Shown here piece by piece: positions 3,770-54,600 of a stretch of 54,600 bases of DNA. The notes below the pieces were generated by a model, which had not been told where the DNA came from, ran no database searches, and saw nothing but the letters and a program-made list of their open reading frames with translations. The translations under genes were made by a program, and so were the position numbers. Positions within the stretch are counted from its first letter, which is position 1. Every line of letters begins with the position of its first letter. This stretch comes from a virus. Taxonomy: Duplodnaviria > Caudoviricetes. Location: positions 1 to 54,600 of the IMG/VR virus record IMGVR_UViG_3300012943_000038; one strand, 5' to 3'.

Positions 3770-6421
3770 TTACGCCGTATGGTTCAAGATCAGGGACGCC
3801 ATCGAGACCTGCCCGTAGGCGGAACCGATGTCATAGTCCGTGTTGGACTGGGTGTAGACCCCGGCCTTGAAGTACCATCCCGACGAGACGACGGTATCAC
3901 TGACGTGATGCTCCACACCGTTGTAAACGACGTCGATGCCCTCCGGGTTGGCGATGATCGCCACCGTGAACTCGGTGCCCAAAACGTACGCCGGGTCGAG
4001 GGTCGCGAGGTTGTCACCATCGTGCTCGACGAACAGATGATTCCCTTCCAACCGAATCATCACGATGTCGTCCTCTTCATCGTGGATTTGGCCAGCGACC
4101 ACATGCTCCTTCTCAGTGAGCGTGTAGTTGATCGACTGAGTGAGGATCAGTGAATGGGTGCCTGAGGCGTTGCCCCAGTCGGCTTCCTCGGTCCCGTTGT
4201 TCTTCATCTCGCGCAGTTCGGAGCGCGGGTAGGACGAGTTCGGGGTGTGATAGCCGTCTGCCCGAGCCTTGAAGATGACGCGGCCGCCGGAGACGTAGAA
4301 GTAGTTCGGGTTCGAGAAGGTCGCCAACTCAGGCTGGTAGACCTCCTTGATCGAGGATCCGGACCCCTTGACCGGGGTCTGCAACTTCCAGTTCTTCGAT
4401 AGGTTGAGCACCTCGGCTGGAATGGTGCCACCGCCTCCTCCGCCACCGCCCCCGGCCTTGCGCCATTGAGTCGGGATAAGGACACGGTAGACCGGAGTCT
4501 GATCGAGATCGGAGTGCTTGATCTCGGTCGAGACGAGGAACGACTTGCCCGCTGCCTCGACGACGATCGCCTCGCACTTGAACATCTCGGGCGTCGGGAT
4601 CGAGCCGACCTGCGTCCAGTTGGTCGTCTCGAAAACCAAGGTCTCCTGCTTGTCGACGACCCGAACGAACGCAAACGACCCGTCCTTGTTGAAGTCGAAA
4701 TCCGACACATACTTGAGAGCCGCATTCGAGGCAACCTGCGTTCCGGCGTTGGGAGTCGACGTCGACATCGAGGCCAACGTGCCGAAGGCAACGACCTTGC
4801 CAACGCTCTCCTTGGTCATCAGGTACAGGACGCCCGTGATCGGATGGAACGCTGCACCTTCGGCGTTCCGGTTCGAGAACGGGTAGTCCAACTCGTATCG
4901 AGTTGACGTGAGGACGCCATGCGAGCCCGGCCCCGGATTCGGGGTGCGGATCATCTTCGGGATGACCCCGCTGTCGTCATCGTTGTTGCCAATGTCGAAC
5001 GTGCAGATGTCACCCGAAACGGGGTCAGTGGCCATCGACTCCGGATCGTTCAAGGACGACCCCGAGATTCCGTAGTCGCCGACCAGATCGCCGGATGTGT
5101 CCGAGCCAACGTCAGCCGAGTCGACGGCGTAGACCTGTGGGTTGGCCGCCTCATCTCCGGTGAACCAGAGCAAGGTGCCGTTCTTGACGAGCGTCATACC
5201 GGACAGTTCGGTGGTGCCACCCGTGATGTTGAATAGAAGGCCGGGGATCGGATCGGTTCCCGGATCCGGGCCGGGGTCTGGGGAGACGACATCGGAGACC
5301 GGCAGACCCATAATCGACTGCGCTGGGCGCTCCATTGGGAGGAGCGTCAGGTCACGCCGAACACCGCTGTCGTCGAGCGTCCAGTTGATCGAGAGGATCT
5401 TCGACTTCGCCTTGAAGATGAAGTTGCCGCTCTCAATGTCGATCGGATGGATGTTGCCCGGCTGCAATTCGTCAGGGTCGATCGTCAGGCCGGGAATCGT
5501 CATCGCCGGAGTGGCAATCGGGTCGCGGTGGTCGACGAGATATCCGCGAGCGTACGAGTCCAACGTCTGCTTCTGGTTCACGTCGCGCCAAGCCACCGAG
5601 GCGTCGAACTTGGGGTAGAAGTTAGAGGCGTCGTAGGCGATCGACCGCACGGTGGTGACTTGGCTCAAGGCCCCAGTGACGTCAGCGCCAGTCGCGTATA
5701 CCCACGTCGCATGATCCTTGGCGTCGACTCCCAACGAGTAGTCAGAACCGTCTCGACCGCCCTTGAGAGTCCTCGTGGACTCCACGTCCATAGCGTCCGA
5801 GAAGGTGATCGTCGAGAACCATCGACCGTCCTCGAAGTAGTGCGAGAGCCTGTATTGGAGGCCGTCGATCGCTTCACTCAACTCCCGGATGATATCGCCG
5901 ATGTTCTTCTGGTCGCGGTTCAGGTAGTTGATGTCGCGCAGCACCGAGGATGGCTCGTAGGACGGAGCCAATTTGATGCCGAGCGGCACGGTGAAGTTGA
6001 CAAGGTCGAAGGCGATCTCTGTCTGTGGACGCCCGGTGGCGGTGTAGGCCACGCCGCCCCGAGTGTCAACCAGATTACGCTCCCAAAGGTACGACTCGAT
6101 CGAGTCCATACCGATGTTGAGCGTCGGCGAGCCGAGCCCGTCGAACTTCTTCACGATGCCCGCGTACATGCACCGTTTCCCGTCCGAGACAGCAGGATCG
6201 CCGTCGAGCAGGCTGATGTAGATAGCGGTCGCGTCGGGCCAGATGTCGAATGGCGTGAGATCGCCACTTGCGAGAACCATCTGGGCCGGGCCGACCTTGG
6301 ACAGCGGCGTCTCGAAAGAGCAGCCGACCGGGTGCATCACCTTCTTGACCCGACCAGTGGTGAGTTCGACCGCCTCGAAGCGCCAGATGTTGCCGCAGCG
6401 GCAGTTGGAAGTGTGTGCCAT
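3770..6421 (-). CDS. Minor tail (hub-like) protein fused to a beta-propeller and a PL7 polysaccharide (alginate) lyase domain
   Basis: N-terminal siphovirus tail-protein region, Pro/Asp linker, propeller, poly-Gly linker, then NWKLQTP, PRSELRE, QIH, YFKAGVYTQ. Confidence 0.85.
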   Translation of the reverse strand: MAHTSNCRCGNIWRFEAVELTTGRVKKVMHPVGCSFETPLSKVGPAQMVLASGDLTPFDIWPDATAIYISLLDGDPAVSDGKRCMYAGIVKKFDGLGSPTLNIGMDSIESYLWERNLVDTRGGVAYTATGRPQTEIAFDLVNFTVPLGIKLAPSYEPSSVLRDINYLNRDQKNIGDIIRELSEAIDGLQYRLSHYFEDGRWFSTITFSDAMDVESTRTLKGGRDGSDYSLGVDAKDHATWVYATGADVTGALSQVTTVRSIAYDASNFYPKFDASVAWRDVNQKQTLDSYARGYLVDHRDPIATPAMTIPGLTIDPDELQPGNIHPIDIESGNFIFKAKSKILSINWTLDDSGVRRDLTLLPMERPAQSIMGLPVSDVVSPDPGPDPGTDPIPGLLFNITGGTTELSGMTLVKNGTLLWFTGDEAANPQVYAVDSADVGSDTSGDLVGDYGISGSSLNDPESMATDPVSGDICTFDIGNNDDDSGVIPKMIRTPNPGPGSHGVLTSTRYELDYPFSNRNAEGAAFHPITGVLYLMTKESVGKVVAFGTLASMSTSTPNAGTQVASNAALKYVSDFDFNKDGSFAFVRVVDKQETLVFETTNWTQVGSIPTPEMFKCEAIVVEAAGKSFLVSTEIKHSDLDQTPVYRVLIPTQWRKAGGGGGGGGGTIPAEVLNLSKNWKLQTPVKGSGSSIKEVYQPELATFSNPNYFYVSGGRVIFKARADGYHTPNSSYPRSELREMKNNGTEEADWGNASGTHSLILTQSINYTLTEKEHVVAGQIHDEEDDIVMIRLEGNHLFVEHDGDNLATLDPAYVLGTEFTVAIIANPEGIDVVYNGVEHHVSDTVVSSGWYFKAGVYTQSNTDYDIGSAYGQVSMASLILNHTA

Positions 6422-7509
6422 CAGGCCGTCAGAACGACTGGCCGGGAGCAAACCTCCGCATGGCCCTCGTCCTCTCCGTTCTGAGTAAGCAGTCGCAACT
6501 GATGATCGCCGGGCAGCAGATTGAAGGACCCCGTGCCGCCGATCCGGAAGGTGACGTCGGTGGTGCCCTGTTCGGCTGTCATGTCACGAGTGTCGATGAC
6601 GACTGAGTATCCGTCGGGGATGATGCCGCTGTAGGTGATGAACTGCTCGGTGACAAGATCCTCCAACTTCGGATTCGTCAGCGGCCCATAGAGCGTGATC
6701 GTCAGGTCAGCGCACTGGGTTCCGCCGACGTTCAGGTCAGTCGGAGCCACTGGGTTCGAGCCGGGTGACACGTTGTCGAAGCACATCCCGACCGGCTCTT
6801 CGTCCTCGTTGACGAAGCAGACGGGGAAGTCGGTGCAGAAGGAGTCGTTGCCCGGAAAGATCTCCACGCAGTCTGATGCTCCGGGGGTGCCGCACTGGTC
6901 GAGGACGAAGATGCGCTCGTCCACACAATCGAACCGCAGCGTCATCACGCAGCAGCCGGACGGCAGCCACGTCTTTGCGGCCACCCGTGGCCGCCCAATG
7001 AAACCGAAGGGGCCGTCGATGGCTCGCTCCGGCGAATTCATCGAGTCAATGCCGCCGAAGTACGTCTCTCCGAACGGTCCCTCACCGAAGCCCTGATTCA
7101 ATTCCGGGTCGATCTCGTTGTCGGACTGATGGCAGGGAGTGAACAGCACCAACTCGACGTCGTTGCATTGGAGTTGCCAAGCATTGATGATGTCGGAGGC
7201 GTGCTGACGAGCCGACTTGCCCGTGGCCGGAGTGCAGTCCGGGCAGTCATCGGGACAAACCGAAACGTTCTCGAACGTCAGGATGCGAGGCAAGTAGTTG
7301 TCGTTGTAGTGGCGTACCCCGTCGCGCTCGAAGAACGTGGTGTCCTGCGTGCGCTGCTCCGGCAACCCGAGGCCGTCCGGAGCCGTTTCGAGGAGGCCAG
7401 CGATCTCCGGAACGTCGCACCCAGCGGCTTCGAGGTCGTCGAGGACAGCATCATCCCCCGACGCACCCGAGAGGTACACGCCGTTGAGGAGGACGCCCCA
7501 GTTACCCAT
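6421..7509 (-). CDS. Distal tail protein (Dit-like minor tail)
   Basis: Position after TMP; RDG…YLPRILT, ITLYGPLTNP, VIDT, FNLLPG motifs. Confidence 0.75.
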   Translation of the reverse strand: MGNWGVLLNGVYLSGASGDDAVLDDLEAAGCDVPEIAGLLETAPDGLGLPEQRTQDTTFFERDGVRHYNDNYLPRILTFENVSVCPDDCPDCTPATGKSARQHASDIINAWQLQCNDVELVLFTPCHQSDNEIDPELNQGFGEGPFGETYFGGIDSMNSPERAIDGPFGFIGRPRVAAKTWLPSGCCVMTLRFDCVDERIFVLDQCGTPGASDCVEIFPGNDSFCTDFPVCFVNEDEEPVGMCFDNVSPGSNPVAPTDLNVGGTQCADLTITLYGPLTNPKLEDLVTEQFITYSGIIPDGYSVVIDTRDMTAEQGTTDVTFRIGGTGSFNLLPGDHQLRLLTQNGEDEGHAEVCSRPVVLTA

Positions 7510-12275: not shown

Positions 12276-12806
12276 TCACGAGCCAACTTCGGCAGCAGTG
12301 TTCTCGACCTTGACCTCTACAGTCACCTGACCAACGATGGTGCTGCACCCGGCCTGCGGATCGCTCTGAACAGCGACCTGTCGCACGATGAGTCGGTGCT
12401 CCGGGCAACACACGAAGGCCCGGTAGAGCGTCTCCATATCGTCGAGAACCTCGTCGGTCGCGGCGTCTACGTCGTCCGGGTCGAGGTAGCCCTGCTCGTC
12501 GATCGTCGGCCAGCAGCGCGTGATCCAGATGGTCATGTTCATCGCCTTGTATCCGGCGCGCTTGCAGGGGTAGACGCGGTTGGTGACCTCTTGGAGATCC
12601 TCGTTGGTCTCGAAGATCCGCTCGACTTGGAAGATCGCCTGACCCCGCCCCTCCACATCAGGGTCGGTGCTCTCGTCGCAGTCGCAGCAATTGACGACGT
12701 ACGGGTTGCCAACCGTGCCGTAGCACTTGCAGAGAGGCCGGGCGGCCTCCTCGAAGGCTGAGCAAACGCACGCGAGGATGTCGCGGGCTGTCTGGCTAAT
12801 AGCCAC
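12276..12806 (-). CDS. Tail terminator / neck protein
   Basis: Position; ITRCWP and PQAGC motifs; Cys-rich. Confidence 0.6.
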   Translation of the reverse strand: MAISQTARDILACVCSAFEEAARPLCKCYGTVGNPYVVNCCDCDESTDPDVEGRGQAIFQVERIFETNEDLQEVTNRVYPCKRAGYKAMNMTIWITRCWPTIDEQGYLDPDDVDAATDEVLDDMETLYRAFVCCPEHRLIVRQVAVQSDPQAGCSTIVGQVTVEVKVENTAAEVGS

Positions 12807-13500
12807 GGTAGTGACCCCCGCCTCCCAGCGGAGCCGCTTCCACCTCCGGCGAGTACACCCGTGCAGGCAGACGAGCGTTGTTCGGGTTGACCAGTTCGAC
12901 CCATCCGGCGACCTCAGGCAGAACCGTCTTGAGTTCCTGATCCGACATCGTGATCGTCACGCCCTGAGCCGTCACCGAGGTGGCGTTCTTGGGCAAGCGA
13001 CACTTCTTGTCCATGCAGGACTTCACCATCTCGCAAGCGAGCGTGGTGGCGACGGCCAGCGCGTAAGAGTCCGGGGCGACGCCGACGACGACCTCGACAG
13101 TAAAAGCCCCCTCGGCCCCGTCCTCAGCCCAGCGAGCATCCTTGGTCGGCCACTTGCCCGGAGGTACGCGCCAGAGAACTTGCTCGTCGGCGTCCCAGCG
13201 CCAGTCGGTCGTCGGGACTTCGGTCGCGCCGTCAAGCACTCGGGTCACCGAGGCGATCCATTGGTCGTCCGGACCGCTGAGACGAATGCCGTCAGCGCCC
13301 CCGCAGCACTTCACGCGGCAGCGTCGGCACTGAGAAAGGGGTCGAAGCGTGGCCGGGCACTGACCGATCTGGAAGCCCGAGAGGCGAGTCATCAGGATCG
13401 AAGCCTGCGTCACCGCCGACGCCAAGATCTCGGTCGACTTGTCCGAGAGGTCGTCACAGCAACCAGAAAGATCCAGCGGCCAGTCACAGGAACATGTCAT
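12796..13500 (-). CDS. Head-to-tail adaptor
   Basis: LSGFQIGQCPATLRP…CRLP…TSVTAQGVT…VNP pattern. Confidence 0.7.
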   Translation of the reverse strand: MTCSCDWPLDLSGCCDDLSDKSTEILASAVTQASILMTRLSGFQIGQCPATLRPLSQCRRCRVKCCGGADGIRLSGPDDQWIASVTRVLDGATEVPTTDWRWDADEQVLWRVPPGKWPTKDARWAEDGAEGAFTVEVVVGVAPDSYALAVATTLACEMVKSCMDKKCRLPKNATSVTAQGVTITMSDQELKTVLPEVAGWVELVNPNNARLPARVYSPEVEAAPLGGGGHYRGY

Positions 13501-14870: not shown

Positions 14871-15578
14871 TCAGGATGCCGGGGTGCAAGGAGCAGGCGG
14901 CTCAACGGTGTCGATGATGCCGCAGTCCGTCGGGTACGGGCCGCCGATGAAGCGGTAGCGGTGCTGTCCCGAGGGGAAGCAGGTGTCGGCCCATGCGGCT
15001 TCTCCGGTGAGCGCGTCGCAGAACATCTCGATCGGGCCGGACCCCAACTGCGCCGTGTCCACCGTGTTGCCGCTGATGCGGATCACGTTGTCCTCGGAGC
15101 CGATGTCGCCGTCCTCGGTCATGCGGGCACCCTTGAGGGGGTACAGCCGCCAGTAGTTGTTGCAGCCGGGGTCATCTCCGGCGCACACGTCGCCGCCGAG
15201 GATCTCCTGCACGACGGCCACGAGGACGTTGAAGCGGTCCTGCGTGCCGTCCGACCAGCCGACGACTTCGCCGTCGAAGTAGATCGGCGACGCTCCGTTC
15301 GCCAGTGCGACGAACTCGGGATCGAGCCAGTGGAAGTCCACGTTGACTTCGATGCCCTGCAACGACTGGACGCCGGGCAGGTATCGCTTGATCGAGCCAT
15401 CGGCACACCGTCGGGTGAAGTCCTCACCGTCGTCGATGTTGTCGTCGGTCTCGATGCCTGCCGGGCAGTCGTCGATGTAGCCAGCAGCGGTCCCGTAGAT
15501 CGGGGACATGCAATCGTCGAGGAGGAACAGAGCAACAGCCTTGATCCGACCAAGATCCGGGGTATCACACGTTGCCAT
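14871..15578 (-). CDS. Major tail (tube) protein
   Basis: Acidic 235 aa; LDDC, GEDFTRRCADG, LDPEFV motifs; follows the capsid genes. Confidence 0.7.
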   Translation of the reverse strand: MATCDTPDLGRIKAVALFLLDDCMSPIYGTAAGYIDDCPAGIETDDNIDDGEDFTRRCADGSIKRYLPGVQSLQGIEVNVDFHWLDPEFVALANGASPIYFDGEVVGWSDGTQDRFNVLVAVVQEILGGDVCAGDDPGCNNYWRLYPLKGARMTEDGDIGSEDNVIRISGNTVDTAQLGSGPIEMFCDALTGEAAWADTCFPSGQHRYRFIGGPYPTDCGIIDTVEPPAPCTPAS

Positions 15579-16401: not shown

Positions 16402-17949
16402 TCAGGCCGGGCAATCCGCGACCGCGCAGGTCTCGACCGGGATGTCGAGCGACTTCGCGTTGCAGCCGCGAGCCAACAGGCCCTCGAACGACTCCGCGAA
16501 GGCGGCCAACTTGTTCTGCCGGTTGAGGTCGTGATCCCGGATCTCGGTGCCGAGGTCCAGCGTCCCGCCGTCGAGGAAGGAGAAGAACCCGTCGGCCGCG
16601 AGCACGGTCGAGGCGGTGTCCGGGTAATCGGCCAACGCGCCGTCGTACTGCACGGTCTCGATGTCGTCGATGTCCTGCGACCAGACGGCCCGGATGTTCT
16701 CGTTCGCCAGAGCCGCTTCCAGCCGGGCCATGATGAGTTCGATCTCATCGCGGCCGGTGTTCAGACCCCGCACGCGGAAGTCCTCACGGATGGCGACCGG
16801 GAGCCACGAGGGAGCCCAGACCGTCAGTCGAACCTCTTCGAGGCGCTGATCCTGACGGATCAGGGCACCTGCACGGCCAACCGTGTTGAGGAAGTTGGCG
16901 TAGGTGCTGCCGGTCGAGATGCCGGTGTGCGTCGAGGTCGTCGCCGCACGCATCTTGCCGAACAGGTTGGCGTCGGCCAGTCGGGCCTGACGGATGCTCA
17001 CTGCACGAAGGTGGCCACGCCACTGTTCGTTGGCGAAGCGATCCATGAAGTTGCCGACCGTGTTGCAGGCGTAGATGCCTTCGACGTTGACGGTCTCCGG
17101 CTCGTCGCACTCGGCGTCCAAGCAGTCCTTCCACGTCTCCGGGTCGTCGGTGACGGCTGCGTCGTCCTCGCAGGTCCAGACGTCCGAACCGCCATCGGCG
17201 ATGCAGATGGCCGGGAAGAAGGTCACCGCGCCGCGACCACGAACACCGATGGTCGGCAGGCTGTCCCGGATCGGGCGAGCCAGCGACCCGGCGACCGGGT
17301 TTTCGTAGATCGGCGTCGGCAGCGAGCAACAACCACCGGCAGCCGTGACGGCCTCCGGGCTGACGAACGAGTCGATCAGCCGGGTGTTGCCTGCGGTGTC
17401 GCCCACCGTGACCGAACGCTCATCGGCGAACTCCGACGTGATCCGGGCGATGCGCTCCTTGCCGGGGCGCTGCGAGCGGGTGGACTCGGAGAACGCCTGA
17501 GCCAGATCGTCCCAAGAAGCGGAGTCCCGCTTCTCGTTGCCGATCGTGACTTCGGTGCGAACCATCGAGAGGGTGTCGACCGGATCCGGCTCGTTGACGA
17601 CCTCGACGGTCTGCGTGCGAAGACCGAGGCGGCTGAGCGCCTCGTCCATCGGAAGCACCTGCGGCACTTCGTCGGCTTCGACTTCGAGGGCGGCGTCCGG
17701 ATCGACAACGCCATCGAGGACGTCATCGACTTCGGCGGCAGCCTCAGCCTCGGCGGCTTCGGCGGCGGCGACGGCCTGCTCGGCCAGATCGTAGGCCGCA
17801 CGGAGCGACATCAGCGCTTCGAGGTCGTTGCTCTTGCCCTTCTGAGCGCGGAGTTCGCGAGCGATCTCGTTGCGGGCCGAAAGCAGTTCGGCGTGAGTGG
17901 GCGGGTTGTCGGTGCCCAGTCGGGCGAGGATTTCGAGTGCGGTTTCCAT
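16402..17949 (-). CDS. Major capsid protein with N-terminal scaffold-like region
   Basis: Ala/Glu-rich N-terminus; VTAAGGCC…PIRDSLP; GTLDLGTEIRDHDLN…FAESFEG. Confidence 0.85.
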   Translation of the reverse strand: METALEILARLGTDNPPTHAELLSARNEIARELRAQKGKSNDLEALMSLRAAYDLAEQAVAAAEAAEAEAAAEVDDVLDGVVDPDAALEVEADEVPQVLPMDEALSRLGLRTQTVEVVNEPDPVDTLSMVRTEVTIGNEKRDSASWDDLAQAFSESTRSQRPGKERIARITSEFADERSVTVGDTAGNTRLIDSFVSPEAVTAAGGCCSLPTPIYENPVAGSLARPIRDSLPTIGVRGRGAVTFFPAICIADGGSDVWTCEDDAAVTDDPETWKDCLDAECDEPETVNVEGIYACNTVGNFMDRFANEQWRGHLRAVSIRQARLADANLFGKMRAATTSTHTGISTGSTYANFLNTVGRAGALIRQDQRLEEVRLTVWAPSWLPVAIREDFRVRGLNTGRDEIELIMARLEAALANENIRAVWSQDIDDIETVQYDGALADYPDTASTVLAADGFFSFLDGGTLDLGTEIRDHDLNRQNKLAAFAESFEGLLARGCNAKSLDIPVETCAVADCPA

Positions 17950-18077: not shown

Positions 18078-19148
18078 TCAGGCCGAGACAGGTTGCGTTT
18101 GTGTCAATTCCTCAAGAGCGCCCACAAACAGATCGAGGTCAGTTTGAGTCTGCGCGCACTTGGATTCAGAGTTCGAGAGGGACGCAGCAGAAGCCGATTC
18201 GTAGCCCTCATTGAGCAGAGCACGGATGGCCGACTCCCACTCATTGAGGTGAGTTTCAGAGGGCTTGCCCCACTCGGCCATCCACGCCGGGTCGTTCCAG
18301 AAGTCGCTACGCTCACGGGGCAGGTGCTCCCCTGACCACGAGACGAACAATCCAGCGCTGCCGAGAGATTCCTTGAGTCCGGGCGTCACGTTGGCGAGGG
18401 TCGGAATGCCGGAACACCCTGCCTCGACCCCGACCAAACCGTAGGACTCGTAGATCGACGGCATCAGTAGGAGTCTGGTCTGGGCCCACACTGGCTTGAG
18501 GTCAGGAGCGTGCTTGACCATCGACAGGTTCGGGATTCGTGGGGGTGGCAGTTGCTTGCCGTGCCCGCCCTCAACCGCGATGAACTGGACGTCGTGCATC
18601 CGTTGGGCCAGTGCATAAAAGATCCTCCCACCCTTGTGCTCGTTCACGTTGATGAGCGTCACAGCATCGCCGGTCGCGCCGACCCGGTGCCGGGAACAGT
18701 CCAGCGGCGGGTGGACGATCATCGTCGCTGACCGCTGGTGAGGGAACCGCTCGGCCAGTGACTTCGACACCCACTCGGAGTTGTGCACCACGAGGTCCGG
18801 AGACTGGCGCAACGGGAGCCGGTTCACGTCCATGTCGTTGTGGGTGAGGTAGACCGTCTTGACTCCCCACTGACGGCCGTACCGCATCACGCTGGTCGCG
18901 TTCTGATGATGGGAGACCATCACGTCAGGCTTCCACCGTCGAGCCTGTTGCAGCGCGATCGTGATGTTGCGAACCGGGACCAGCCGGACGCCCTCGAAAT
19001 ACTGCTCGCGCGCTCCGGGGCAATCGGTCACCCAGCAGACGACTTCATGCCCAGCCTCGACCAGATGCTTGAGCATCAGGTGAAGGACGGTCTCAGAACC
19101 GGCGTTCCGCAGCGGAGTGGCGAAGTGGACGAGGGCTCCTACCTTCAT
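18078..19148 (-). CDS. Glycosyltransferase family 4 (GT-B)
   Basis: AGSE…L…AGHEV; HKGG; LLMPSIYESYGLVGVEA (EX7E) motif. Confidence 0.9.
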   Translation of the reverse strand: MKVGALVHFATPLRNAGSETVLHLMLKHLVEAGHEVVCWVTDCPGAREQYFEGVRLVPVRNITIALQQARRWKPDVMVSHHQNATSVMRYGRQWGVKTVYLTHNDMDVNRLPLRQSPDLVVHNSEWVSKSLAERFPHQRSATMIVHPPLDCSRHRVGATGDAVTLINVNEHKGGRIFYALAQRMHDVQFIAVEGGHGKQLPPPRIPNLSMVKHAPDLKPVWAQTRLLLMPSIYESYGLVGVEAGCSGIPTLANVTPGLKESLGSAGLFVSWSGEHLPRERSDFWNDPAWMAEWGKPSETHLNEWESAIRALLNEGYESASAASLSNSESKCAQTQTDLDLFVGALEELTQTQPVSA

Positions 19149-21727: not shown

Positions 21728-22330
21728 TTAGAGTTTGACCCAGACGCTCGGAGTCTCGTCGCCGACAGGAGCAAGGCCAGCAGCCTCGGCCACAGCCAAC
21801 CGCTGCTTCGGCTCCCACGTCGTCACGTCGATCCAGTCGCGACGCTCGTGCGGTCGAGCACGGTCGGCCAGCGGCCAGTCGGCGACCAGATGGCCGCCCT
21901 TCTTGAGCACTGAGGCGAACGCCTTCACGAGAGCCTCGACGCCTTCATAGTCGTGATGGATGAGAACAGCGCGGCAGACGATTCCGTCGACCTTGCCCTT
22001 CACCTTCTTCGATAGGTCACGGCCGTCGGACTTCACCGTGGTGAGTTCGACGTCCATCTTCTTCGCCCGCTTGCGAACACGATCGAGCATGGCCGGAGAC
22101 GAATCCACCGCCACCACCTCGAAGTCCATCCCAGCCAGCGGGATCGCCAATCTGCCATCGCCGCAGCCGAAGTCCATCACCTTCGAGCCCTTGTCGAACC
22201 ACGACGCCGCGAAGTGAGCCTGCACCTGTCCGGACTTCCAGTAGGCGTCCTCGCTGACGGTGCGGAGGGGATGTATGTGCTGGACGTCGGCCTGCTGCCA
22301 TGCTTCCACCACGTCGTCGAACTTGGTCAT
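21728..22330 (-). CDS. Class I SAM-dependent methyltransferase
   Basis: VMDFGCGDGR, AVDSSPAML, VLIH, LKKGG motifs. Confidence 0.9.
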   Translation of the reverse strand: MTKFDDVVEAWQQADVQHIHPLRTVSEDAYWKSGQVQAHFAASWFDKGSKVMDFGCGDGRLAIPLAGMDFEVVAVDSSPAMLDRVRKRAKKMDVELTTVKSDGRDLSKKVKGKVDGIVCRAVLIHHDYEGVEALVKAFASVLKKGGHLVADWPLADRARPHERRDWIDVTTWEPKQRLAVAEAAGLAPVGDETPSVWVKL

Positions 22331-22602
22331 CCTGTCACCTTCGGTTTGGTGAATCGGCCCCGCTCGTCGCGGAGAACGAATTGCAACTGACACTGACAGT
22401 ACCGAGCATTGATGTCGGTGTCTGGATGATGGTGGTCCGGGAAGGCGAACTCGTTCGGTGCTCGGGTCTTGTTCAACTTCCGGTGGTCCTCAAAGACCCC
22501 TCCTTGGAGACCTGCGTGCCAGCGCCAGACGACGGCCGTCACCCGAACCCCTCGCGAGGCGAGGAAGTCCTCGACGAACTTTCCTTGGGCGAAGGCCTTC
22601 AC
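22327..22602 (-). CDS. Short MuF-like (C-terminal part) protein
   Basis: WRW…FEDHRKLN…FP…CQC pattern; GTGA overlap with the portal stop. Confidence 0.5.
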   Translation of the reverse strand: MKAFAQGKFVEDFLASRGVRVTAVVWRWHAGLQGGVFEDHRKLNKTRAPNEFAFPDHHHPDTDINARYCQCQLQFVLRDERGRFTKPKVTG

Positions 22603-28124: not shown

Positions 28125-28741
28125 GACTCGTCCTTGACGATCAGGGCAAGACCGGCCTGTTGGCTACAGACCTGATAGCAGTCCTCACAGATGTTCAGGC
28201 TCAGGAGCGCCGGTCCGATCTGAATCAGCCCCTCATGAAATCCATCCAAGGACTGCTTCTCGCAGCGGTCGCAGCAGTCCTCAGGGACAGTCAGAGGGAA
28301 CAGACTCAGGGGGATCGAAACGACCCCGGCCCGGATGAGAGCGGCATCGGCCGGGTAGTGAAGACCGAAATCGTCGATGCTGGCGTCAAGTGCCTCACGG
28401 AACTTCACGTTGAAATGAGCCTGCGGGGTCAAGCCGATGAGTGCGTTCTTGTCGTTGGCGCAACTGGGGCAGAGGAACACTCGGTAATCCCACCGCACAG
28501 CAAAAGGACTCGCGCCGAGGGACGGGAGGTGGTCACACAGGCCCAATGCCCCAGCGAGCATCATCTTCCACTGAGCCCGATTGCGCTTGTCCTCCTCGGA
28601 TCCGATCTCGGCATTCGAGGTTCTGGTCGCGCCTTCGCCGATCGCCTCAGCGGTACGCATGAAAGCCATGTTGGCTTCGTCAACGGCAGCGCCCCACTGA
28701 TCCGCCTTGTGGACGTTGAGGGCATCTTCTTCAATGGACAT
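28121..28741 (-). CDS. Hypothetical zinc-binding protein
   Basis: Multiple CxxC motifs; leaderless promoter upstream. Confidence 0.65.
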   Translation of the reverse strand: MSIEEDALNVHKADQWGAAVDEANMAFMRTAEAIGEGATRTSNAEIGSEEDKRNRAQWKMMLAGALGLCDHLPSLGASPFAVRWDYRVFLCPSCANDKNALIGLTPQAHFNVKFREALDASIDDFGLHYPADAALIRAGVVSIPLSLFPLTVPEDCCDRCEKQSLDGFHEGLIQIGPALLSLNICEDCYQVCSQQAGLALIVKDES

Positions 28742-28747
28742 GAGAAC

Positions 28748-28762
28748 AGCATAGCGCGGCTA
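28748..28762 (-). promoter_or_regulatory. TAGC-N3-GCTA element plus -10 (TATGCT), leaderless promoter
   Basis: GCATAGCGCGGCTATGC palindrome; ATG 6 nt from the -10. Confidence 0.6.
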
Positions 28763-28849
28763 TGCAAATACCGTGTGATTGAATGTCGGTACGTCGGCAC
28801 AGAGTCGACGACCGGCACAGAGCCGAGGATCCACAGAGGAGTGGTTTGT

Positions 28850-29197
28850 ATGGGCAACGACGAAGCGATCATCTACGGCGATCGCCACGGTGAGCAGTAT
28901 CGAGAGTTCTCTCAAAGCCTCGGTGTCAGGGTCGATTCCGAGGGCCGGATCAACGACGAGGACGCGCCGCCAAAGACCTACTACCCGAACGCAATCGCGA
29001 TGAACTGCATCGGTGGCGAGGTTCAGATCGGCGTGGTTACGTTCGACCAGAGCACCGGGGAGCGGAACCGTTTCTACGGCGACAACGACAACGAACAATG
29101 GGACTCCTTGTGGGCCTCACTGGATCGGCAAGGACTCAACCGGCTGATCCGGGAAGCGCGCAGGTTGCGAGATCGCGCCTACGGCAAGGACGAGTAG
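28850..29197 (+). CDS. Hypothetical protein
   Basis: AGAGGAG RBS; C-terminal LDRQGLNRLIREARRLRDRAYGKDE; directly upstream of the tRNA. Confidence 0.7.
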   Translation: MGNDEAIIYGDRHGEQYREFSQSLGVRVDSEGRINDEDAPPKTYYPNAIAMNCIGGEVQIGVVTFDQSTGERNRFYGDNDNEQWDSLWASLDRQGLNRLIREARRLRDRAYGKDE

Positions 29198-29209
29198 CCT
29201 TCAAGGGCT

Positions 29210-29281
29210 GGCGGGTTGGCCGAGTGGCTCAGGCGCGGGACTACAAATCCCGTCACGCGGGTTCGATCCCCGCACCCGCTT
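29210..29281 (+). tRNA. tRNA-Cys-type with anticodon ACA
   Basis: Acceptor GGCGGGT/ACCCGCT, D-arm GCCGAGTGGCTCAGGC, stem CGGGA/TCCCG with loop CT-ACA-AA, T-arm GCGGG-TTCGATC-CCCGC, discriminator T; no encoded CCA. Confidence 0.88.
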
Positions 29282-29540
29282 CTAGAAGAGAAGCCTCGAC
29301 AAGTACCTTCGCGGCCAGAGCCACAGCACCTTCGCGATAGTCATGGAAAATCAGAAATTCCTCTCTCCTTGAGTGGATATCTGGCCCCAGTGAGTTCATC
29401 GTCACCGTCTCGTTTTCCGGCGTCCACTCAACCGCGCAGGCATAGGTATTGATGCCATCCTCAGCAGTCACGCGACGTTCAGCGAACCAGTAACCGACCT
29501 CCGTGGAGTTGACTTGGATGAGTCCGTGCAGCGCCATCAC
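29253..29540 (-). CDS. Hypothetical protein (3' end overlaps the tRNA antisense)
   Basis: MALHGLIQVN…HDYREGAVALAAKVL; promoter upstream. Confidence 0.65.
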   Translation of the reverse strand: MMALHGLIQVNSTEVGYWFAERRVTAEDGINTYACAVEWTPENETVTMNSLGPDIHSRREEFLIFHDYREGAVALAAKVLVEASLLEAGAGIEPA

Positions 29541-29623
29541 TCACCGCCCTCAACTGGGTCACTGCCGGTTGTGTCCGGGGAGATCCGCGCGGTACTCTGG
29601 AACCGCGCCGTCGAATAGCGTGG

Positions 29624-29653
29624 ACTTTAGCCCTCCAGCAGAGTCCCAGTCAA
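29624..29653 (-). promoter_or_regulatory. SigA-type promoter
   Basis: TTGACT-N18-TAAAGT. Confidence 0.5.
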
Positions 29654-29684
29654 GACCCCCCGCGTCCACCACCGGGGGGTCTTG
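29651..29684. terminator. Intrinsic terminator-like hairpin
   Basis: CAAGACCCCCC / GGGGGGTCTTG 11-bp inverted repeat just after the 29690 stop. Confidence 0.65.
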
Positions 29685-29689
29685 CTGTG

Positions 29690-30061
29690 TCAGTCGTCCT
29701 CTCGATAAATCTTGGTCGGGATGCCAGCGGCGTCGGCGAGATTGAGGGTCATGGTCGCGCCCTTGCTGCCGTTCTTGATGAACGCCAGACACACGTCGAT
29801 GCCGGAGTCCACCATCTCCTTGTTGCGGAGGTAGCCGGCGCGCTTGCCGAACTTGTCCCAGTCCGCGGGGTGGCGCTCGACCTCCCACTGATTGGTTGAC
29901 CACGCCATGTCTGCGATGTGGTCCGCTCCAGTCGGGCATGCGCCGTGCACCAGCACTGGGACGTAGCCTTCACGGACCATTTGCATGGCCGTGTCCCACA
30001 GCGCCTGCACGATGACGACTTGATCGGTCCAGTCGCGCGAGCCGGTGACGAGAATCCTCAC
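29690..30061 (-). CDS. SLOG/YspA-like (DUF2493) protein
   Basis: RILVTGSRDW, LVHGACPTGAD, HPADW…AGYLRNKEMV, SKGA motifs. Confidence 0.85.
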   Translation of the reverse strand: MRILVTGSRDWTDQVVIVQALWDTAMQMVREGYVPVLVHGACPTGADHIADMAWSTNQWEVERHPADWDKFGKRAGYLRNKEMVDSGIDVCLAFIKNGSKGATMTLNLADAAGIPTKIYREDD

Positions 30062-30279
30062 GCTCTCTCCCTTGTGTCTTCGATGTGCACCTCACCGCCC
30101 CATGAGGCCCAGTACTCATTGCGCCAAGCGTCCAGTCGGGCACCGAGGTAAGTGCGGTAGCCCTGCACCCATGAGGCATGGCCTCCACCGTCATAGACCA
30201 TGTGGCTGTAGTGAACGTGCCACCTGCGGTCGAGGTGACGGTTCGGCTCTCGTCGTCCCTTCGGGTAGACCTGTCTCAT
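30058..30279 (-). CDS. Hypothetical protein
   Basis: 4-nt overlaps on both sides. Confidence 0.6.
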   Translation of the reverse strand: MRQVYPKGRREPNRHLDRRWHVHYSHMVYDGGGHASWVQGYRTYLGARLDAWRNEYWASWGGEVHIEDTRERA

Positions 30280-54371: not shown

Positions 54372-54600
54372 GCGACGTGATGACGGCCGGAGAGATCGTG
54401 TTGGCGAGCATGGGCGTGATCGCCTTGCGGGACACCCGGACGGAGATCGTCCAGTCCTCATCGCTCGCCGGAGCACCCTCGCGCAAACTGTCGCAGGTGT
54501 GCCTCGACCTGATCGCTCACAGCGACCGTGACGCCGACTGGCGGCCGGGCATCCCCGGCCGGATCGGAGTCCTCAACGACCGCGTGCAGGATGTCCTCAA
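54368..54600 (+). CDS. Hypothetical protein (continues at the window start to 220)
   Basis: AAGGAG RBS, ATGA overlap, open to the window end. Confidence 0.7.
   Translation, partial: MSDVMTAGEIVLASMGVIALRDTRTEIVQSSSLAGAPSRKLSQVCLDLIAHSDRDADWRPGIPGRIGVLNDRVQDVL
54478..54600. repeat. Terminal direct repeat, copy 2
   Basis: Identical to 1-123. Confidence 0.95.

Follow-up and report, generated by a model that had tools for sequence, protein, structure and literature searches.

In a tRNA that serves a two-codon box, an adenosine at the wobble position (A34) gives up the C-ending codon and, if deaminated, puts neighbouring codons at risk, which in the cysteine box means the UGA stop. To our knowledge, A at this position of a two-codon-box tRNA is almost never found in bacteria or phages. 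Unmodified A34 can reportedly decode each of the four codons in a box, preferring U, and, if this applied to the cysteine box, some misreading of UGG and UGA would follow. The VapC4 toxin of Mycobacterium tuberculosis is said to cut tRNA-Cys. For the deamination of A34, the available text of one study describes the TadA-dependent editing sites of Escherichia coli as a UACG motif in an Arg2-like stem-loop and sites without UACG as not TadA-dependent (PMC13170351, 2026). The major determinants of CysRS are given as U73 and the GCA anticodon in the available text of PMC9976931, which agrees with an earlier reading of the present DNA from its letters (the sequence-only reading) in counting G34 as part of CysRS identity. 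Finally, phage tRNAs with changes in the anticodon loop have been predicted to resist host tRNases in mycobacteriophages and coliphages, as described in the available text of van den Berg et al. (2023; PMC10264068). Here, a phage tRNA gene that combines a cysteine-type body with the anticodon ACA is compared with these systems.

The window, i.e. the whole stretch of 54,600 nucleotides that was analysed, is a complete-looking viral record with about 62% G+C and an exact direct terminal repeat of 123 bases (1-123 and 54478-54600). A PHROGs scan of 67 ORFs assigns to the minus strand a siphovirus-like virion and lysis module that runs from the large terminase (about 26.3 kb) to about 0.8 kb, and then a replication module with a Sak4-like annealing protein, an exonuclease, a primase, a helicase and DNA polymerase I. 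As claimed in the sequence-only reading, the tRNA gene is a lone one: over the whole 54.6 kb ARAGORN reports as its sole tRNA a tRNA-Cys (aca) at 29210-29282 on the plus strand, and the only Rfam match above threshold is to RF00005 at 29210-29281 (+), which covers the model in full length (positions 1-71) with 55.8 bits (gathering score 29; E = 2.1e-09). The features of the locus are collected in Table 1.

Table 1. Features of the tRNA locus, in positions of the window.
Feature	Position	Strand	Basis
115-aa ORF, co-oriented with the tRNA gene, 12-base gap (29198-29209) to it	28850..29197	+	GC by codon phase, about 28820-29200 coding
tRNA gene, cysteine-type body, 72 nt including U73	29210..29281	+	ARAGORN, Rfam, nearest bacterial tRNAs Cys(GCA)
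Anticodon loop C32-U33-A34-C35-A36-A37-A38	29241..29247	+	Sequence and Rfam alignment
Anticodon ACA, A34 = 29243	29243..29245	+	Sequence, ARAGORN; same letter in Logan contig
Converging 95-aa ORF, last codons overlap the 3' part of the tRNA gene	29253..29540	-	ORF list; phrog_3491 (unknown function), E = 3.7e-06

In the sequence and its Rfam alignment, the acceptor stem (GGCGGGU/ACCCGCU) consists of a G1-U72 wobble and six Watson-Crick pairs, the D arm (GCCG/AGGC) has three pairs with G13-A22 unpaired, and the anticodon stem (CGGGA/UCCCG) is made of five Watson-Crick pairs. The variable loop has 4 nt, the T arm (GCGGG-UUCGAUC-CCCGC) is canonical, the discriminator U73 lies at 29281 and the gene does not encode CCA. 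Beyond position 34, neither the Rfam alignment nor the score contains a sign of decay. The earlier description of Cys-type features with a short variable loop, U73 and a loop that reads CT-ACA-AA is accurate; its statement that all stems are intact holds if one G-U pair (G1-U72) is allowed for, but not for the D arm with its 13:22 mismatch. A reading of the minus strand, which would give a threonine tRNA with the anticodon UGU, was ruled out: the canonical GGTTCGATCC T arm lies on the plus strand, which is the only one called by ARAGORN and Rfam.

The isotype of the body was judged from nearest neighbours and from identity features, of which the Cys-type U73, G2:C71 and C3:G70 are present. Matches among GenBank phages comprise six records with 76-78% identity, five of which are annotated as tRNA-Cys; the sixth, with two accessions, is without annotation. 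In a sample of 401 Actinomycetota genomes (two of them flagged as unpublished and counted in the tally only), 55 have a match to the tRNA at E <= 1e-6, and in the best 12 of these 55 loci the matching gene is tRNA-Cys(gca) in every case, with 75-83% identity and often within a Gly-Cys-Val cluster. The anticodon arm of several of these 12 equals that of the window apart from position 34, which is also the only place where the window's loop differs from those of the nearest bacterial Cys tRNAs. Among viruses, at least 120 loci carry the same body pattern with GCA, and from these 110 distinct tRNAs were obtained, 105 of them with at most one acceptor mismatch. Among the matches listed, these 105 well-formed phage Cys(GCA) tRNAs all have U73; the 1:72 pair is G-C in 92 and G-U, as in the window, in 5, and the three bases after U73 are CTA, again as in the window, in 10. 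Rfam scores of the Cys tRNAs in 20 viral Cys(GCA) loci range from 46.4 to 65.5 bits, with 7 of the 20 below the 55.8 bits of the window, which is thus mid-range. Since the anticodon is A34-C35-A36 and not the G34-C35-A36 of a standard tRNA-Cys, the tRNA is filed as Cys-type by its body. On these comparisons, the body is that of an ordinary phage tRNA-Cys, unusual solely at A34, and the earlier claim of a real, lone, cysteine-type phage tRNA with A34 is borne out by ARAGORN, Rfam and the neighbours alike.

The 115-aa ORF upstream starts with an ATG at 28850 that is preceded by GAGGAG. No Pfam family was found for its product, the C-terminal 36 aa of which match phrog_10659 (unknown function; E = 3.4e-05), and the coding signal of the converging 95-aa ORF by GC phase is moderate. 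Together, the 115-aa ORF and the tRNA gene probably form one small rightward transcription unit between leftward genes and, judged from this gene layout, the tRNA looks expressed. Simple scans of 28500-29800 detected neither a promoter-like site on the plus strand nor a terminator-like site, and the sequencing runs listed for 28200-30200 include no RNA run. A 345-aa plus-strand ORF (28160-29197) was considered as an integrase and rejected, given that it matches no Pfam family and that GC phase indicates plus-strand coding only in its last third (about 28820-29197). No integrase was found among the 67 ORFs with PHROGs at E <= 1e-5; therefore, the tRNA gene is not regarded as part of an attachment site, and an attP or tRNA-derived integration site was ruled out on this ground and because the tRNA is full length and not a partial copy.

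Several observations concern the wider surroundings. In each of three small runs from 2025 (X2-X4, 'organism A'), one 188-base contig is identical to 29799-29986, with nothing else of 28200-30200 present and the tRNA not covered. The ORF around this segment (29690-30061, minus) encodes a YAcAr/SLOG-family protein (Pfam PF10686), and many Mycobacterium cluster A-like phages have genes with 73-82% identity to the segment, annotated as hypothetical, 'ssDNA binding' or 'DprA-like'. Within the virion block, between capsid and portal-like genes, a family 4 glycosyltransferase and a SAM-dependent methyltransferase are encoded on the minus strand (18078-19148 and 21728-22393); for the latter, the PHROGs label is 'tRNA methyltransferase' and the Pfam label is generic.

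Close relatives of the phage were found neither among GenBank phages nor in the viral_contigs collection of IMG/VR, scans of which may omit the window's own record. Among GenBank phages, megablast with 28700-29800 found nothing, a single query with the terminase gave no match in viral_contigs, and exact stretches of 38, 23 and 21 bases of the tRNA were each found 0 times there. The nearest cultured phages by terminase are Microbacterium phages with 38-43% identity. Seven of these have an annotated tRNA-Cys, namely MementoMori, Cinna, Matzah, Cressida, Margaery, Terij and MO526; the first six are also the closest by terminase (about 42-43%), and MO526 (about 41%) ranks after Kozie, which is outside the seven. 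In MementoMori, the one record of the seven that was read for its anticodon, the annotation is tRNA-Cys with gca, and its whole record of 55,572 bases contains exactly one Rfam tRNA. Like the window, these are actinobacteriophages of 53-56 kb with a cysteine-type tRNA, U73 and a CCGAG D arm. They differ from it in the anticodon (GCA, as read in MementoMori, versus ACA), in the identity of the tRNAs, which is only about 70%, in that the aligned relatives encode CCA and the window does not, and in the place of the gene, which is between terminase and portal in MementoMori and about 3 kb upstream of the terminase, on the strand opposite to it, in the window. Given the different genome place and the identity of about 70%, tRNA-Cys seems to have been acquired repeatedly within this broad group of phages, with G34 as its normal state. 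Of the finding that would refute the sequence-only reading, GCA in close relatives, only a distant counterpart was seen: the relatives with GCA are remote, and the collections searched contain no close one.

The rarity of ACA was assessed with two pattern scans. The first combined an actinobacterial-type Cys body with the loop TACAAA and found 0 other contigs with ACA in viral_contigs, against at least 120 with TGCAAA. Across 185,579 species genomes it gave 9 pattern matches with one real ACA tRNA (Luedemannella), and in metagenome contigs 63 matches with two ACA tRNAs, of which one is clean and lies on a contig of 33% G+C (L149) and the other has several mismatches and is decayed (L185). The second, looser pattern required the loop CTACAAA, a canonical T loop and T at the discriminator place; 8 of its 39 matches in viral_contigs hold an ACA tRNA. 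One Cys-like ACA sequence occurs with identical flanks in three samples, which points to one genome sampled three times; its neighbours in a five-tRNA cluster (G601) are Leu(taa), Lys(ttt), Glu(ttc) and Asn(gtt), and the G+C content of the loci is about 40%. Another Cys-like ACA copy has a C3-A70 mismatch and lies on a tRNA-rich phage fragment (G602) that also carries a diverged Cys(GCA) paralog, and a complete 38 kb phage has a low-scoring ACA tRNA (38.2 bits) as its sole tRNA. The remaining three are related copies with A73 and a body that is not Cys-like.

In total, the census counts Cys-type ACA tRNAs in the present phage, in a single bacterial tRNA array and in four further families from viral or metagenome contigs, one of which is decayed. 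These tRNAs are rare and scattered, mostly where the copy is one of several or dispensable, and they define no clade of diverged genomes. To gauge mutational noise, the general pattern was also run with the anticodon GTA, and among the 120 matches listed 17 loci hold a GUA tRNA (5 distinct), a figure confounded by genuine short-arm Tyr tRNAs. The view that A34 tRNAs outside the TadA substrates are very rare is supported by the ACA scans. Two further observations were made on the contigs concerned. The tRNA with A73 and a AGCTCAGTTGG-type D arm is kept in related but diverged IMG/VR phage contigs (L235, 149,664 bases; L246, 144,768; L241, 33,283) and may be a UGU-reading tRNA of different identity. 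The AT-rich fragment with both Cys(gca) and Cys(aca) (G602, locus L287) also holds, at 16789-16865, an ARAGORN tRNA with the amber-reading anticodon CUA, labelled Pyl.

In the literature, a 'tRNA-Cys-ACA' is printed for four E. coli Schitoviridae phages in an unanalysed listing, as seen in the available text of PMC11927229, and apart from this listing a literature search returned no work on a Cys(ACA) tRNA from bacteria or phages. For PP175015 (Escherichia phage UE-S5a), the Rfam hits score 63, 40.7 and 22.9 bits, of which 22.9 falls short of the cut-off, and ARAGORN gives Ile(aat) and one undetermined tRNA. A Cys(aca) was found in PP175015 neither by ARAGORN nor above the Rfam threshold, and the tRNAscan output behind the listing may sit in the paper's supplement. 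The listing, so far as its available text extends, is a weak precedent for a phage Cys(ACA). The 63-bit hit, a strong tRNA-Ile at 1497-1575 (L270) with the anticodon AAU, is another phage tRNA with A34.

The only bacterial ACA case, Luedemannella helvata JCM 13249, allows the origin of such an anticodon to be followed among homologues. Its ACA tRNA stands in a chromosomal Gly-Leu(gag)-Cys(aca)-Met cluster, and the genome also has a canonical Gly-Cys(gca)-Val cluster, which makes the ACA copy a spare. A family search with the ACA region covered 201 genomes, of which 101 matched (three flagged unpublished genomes entered the tally only), and the 30 loci that were fetched are mostly large tRNA arrays. 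A Cys tRNA is present in 11 of the 30, with GCA in 10 and ACA in Luedemannella itself. Eight of the ten GCA homologues are 79-89% identical to the Luedemannella ACA tRNA and the other two 75% and 68%; the nearest one (89%) has the same anticodon arm, but with G34. By comparison with these homologues, the A34 of Luedemannella is a private G34A change in an intact spare Cys tRNA, and the case demonstrates that private G34A changes do arise in such copies. This weakens the argument that intact stems speak against simple decay, since Luedemannella combines G34A with an intact cloverleaf while the Cys tRNAs of its family are GCA in 10 of 10. The arrays of this family also show other peculiarities: Micromonosporaceae loci L201-L229 (e.g. 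L205, L207, L216 and L217) are tRNA arrays of 10-20 genes with a 76-nt 'Leu(gag)' that lacks a long variable arm, and further A34 variants occur as Ala(agc) in L218 and Leu(aag) in L229.

Codon usage was counted over 64 heuristically called ORFs (15,516 codons, with some overlaps counted twice) and gives 170 UGC and 61 UGU codons for cysteine. Unmodified A34 would form clean Watson-Crick pairs with UGU alone, i.e. with 26% of the Cys codons of the phage, whereas a G34 tRNA serves all of them. This does not match the needs of the phage, in which UGC dominates both overall and in the virion and lysis genes (91 UGC and 27 UGU among 118 Cys codons), and the latter count weakens the idea of a dedicated UGU reader for Cys-rich virion genes. 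Cysteine-rich virion proteins are encoded on the minus strand at 12276-12806 (12 Cys in 176 aa), 6421-7509 (16 in 362), 12796-13500 (12 in 234) and 14871-15578 (10 in 235), with nearly all Cys encoded by UGC; proteins of this kind may be the reason why phages of this group carry tRNA-Cys. As G34 is an identity base of CysRS, A34 should also lower charging.

Because pairing would be limited to UGU and a CysRS base is lost, the ACA anticodon is read as a private change in a dispensable copy: a recent G34A transition in a spare phage tRNA-Cys that creates no new decoding device, a reading to which about an even chance is given. The ancestor would most likely have been an ordinary tRNA-Cys(GCA) like that of the nearest cultured phages, and a single G-to-A transition at wobble position 34 would have produced the anticodon ACA. 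The tRNA would probably still be transcribed together with the small upstream ORF and processed, and its unmodified A34 would give Watson-Crick pairing with no codon but UGU, at the cost of one anticodon base for CysRS. The outcome would be a lineage-private change, neutral or mildly harmful, and at best a weakened UGU reader. Against the private-mutation reading stand the otherwise undecayed gene, the presence of ACA as consensus at about 21x and the position directly behind a co-oriented ORF, as is expected of an expressed gene; in addition, the intact Cys-like ACA tRNAs of other viral contigs indicate that ACA copies can persist.

These same observations favour the alternative that survives best, in which A34 is adaptive and the gene encodes a working, adequately charged tRNA-Cys that escapes a host anticodon nuclease or another tRNA-depleting defence directed against tRNA-Cys(GCA), or serves UGU specifically. 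It is considered unlikely, even though the gene is intact and looks expressed and loop-altered phage tRNAs with predicted resistance to host tRNases provide a precedent (PMC10264068, available text). The recurrence of tRNA-Cys in the phage group at a different position and with about 70% identity suggests repeated selection for a Cys tRNA supply, intact Cys-like ACA tRNAs recur in unrelated viral contigs, and the tRNA set of the five-gene cluster (G601), in loci of about 40% G+C, fits A/U-rich codon use. A more specific version, in which CysRS tolerates A34 and the tRNA maintains the supply of Cys-tRNA when a defence destroys or sequesters tRNA-Cys(GCA), either unmodified (reading UGU and, sloppily, UGC) or with inosine, is likewise doubtful. 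However, no Watson-Crick or standard wobble pairing would be available for 74% of the Cys codons (UGC), CysRS has GCA as a major determinant, and the UGU share of 26% is no higher than the U-ending share of His (25%) or Asp (24%). ACA is also not common to any phage clade, the three-sample case being one genome, and where a nuclease cuts the anticodon itself, the available text of PMC10264068 has phages mostly avoid encoding that tRNA and not change its anticodon.

Deamination of A34 to inosine, which would allow UGU and UGC and weakly UGA to be read and would let the tRNA either decode Cys generally or act as an opal suppressor that inserts Cys, is very unlikely. The loop C-U-A-C-A-A-A differs from the TadA-recognised loop of tRNA-Arg(ACG) at position 36 only, and I34 would restore the reading of UGC, the main Cys codon of the phage. 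Nevertheless, the loop reads UACA where the E. coli TadA motif in the available text of PMC13170351 is UACG, so deamination of A34 is not expected, with the qualification that an E. coli criterion may not hold for actinobacterial TadA. No deaminase was found among the 67 ORFs compared with PHROGs or the 8 compared with Pfam. As to suppression, ACA is complementary to UGU and not to a stop codon, and UGA is reachable only as I34; moreover, 48 of the 64 ORFs (75%) end in TGA, 11 in TAG and 5 in TAA, so that suppression would extend most phage proteins. Both the motif and the stop codons thus tell against the option of I34 with opal suppression raised in the sequence-only reading.

A non-decoding role, in which an uncharged RNA titrates a host factor that binds tRNAs, as a decoy or sponge, or supplies tRNA fragments, would account for a cloverleaf that is intact while an identity nucleotide is lost, and is rated equally improbable: nothing at the locus suggests such a role, a conserved partner gene was not found, the 115-aa ORF next to the tRNA gene is without a known family, and a recent mutation is the simpler account of the same pattern. 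That the A at 29243 is an artefact or a minority variant of a phage with GCA is hardly credible even for a single genome from one metagenome that was inspected as contigs, since the Logan assembly of run X1 contains a contig of 54,507 bases (word depth 20.8) with the same letter and zero differing letters over the 2 kb of 28200-30200. Run X1 is a soil metagenome and the probable source sample, which makes the Logan contig a second assembly and not an independent sample; the same letter from a second assembler renders an assembly error unlikely, and at about 21x the sampled population has ACA as its consensus, in contigs that cannot show minority variants at 29243.

What the locus means depends on the reading. 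Should the tRNA work, it would show that CysRS can tolerate the loss of G34, that a phage can change the anticodon proper to evade defences directed at tRNAs, and that translation copes with A34 or I34 beside a stop codon; natural A34 tRNAs in two-codon boxes adjoining a stop codon would then have their first example, and the rare ACA Cys tRNAs of other viral contigs would be independent cases of the same trick. If the change is a private mutation, which is judged likelier, it provides a small example of drift in dispensable phage and array copies of tRNAs. As a by-product, the census describes Cys-type ACA tRNAs as rare yet recurrent in spare copies.

Compared with known systems, the window tRNA has A34, U33 and C35 in common with tRNA-Arg(ACG), within a 7-nt loop on a 5-bp stem, and differs from it in position 36, which is A and not G, and in its two-fold box, where I34 would touch a stop codon. 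With the tRNAs in the available text of van den Berg et al. (2023; PMC10264068) it has in common that the anticodon loop of a phage tRNA departs from the normal bacterial form; there, however, the anticodon itself is unchanged, whereas in the window the anticodon is changed and decoding is narrowed. A further likeness is found in Luedemannella, which has the same intact Cys-type cloverleaf with U73 and the loop C-U-A-C-A-A-A, in a chromosomal array where, unlike in the window, homologues show that A34 is private.
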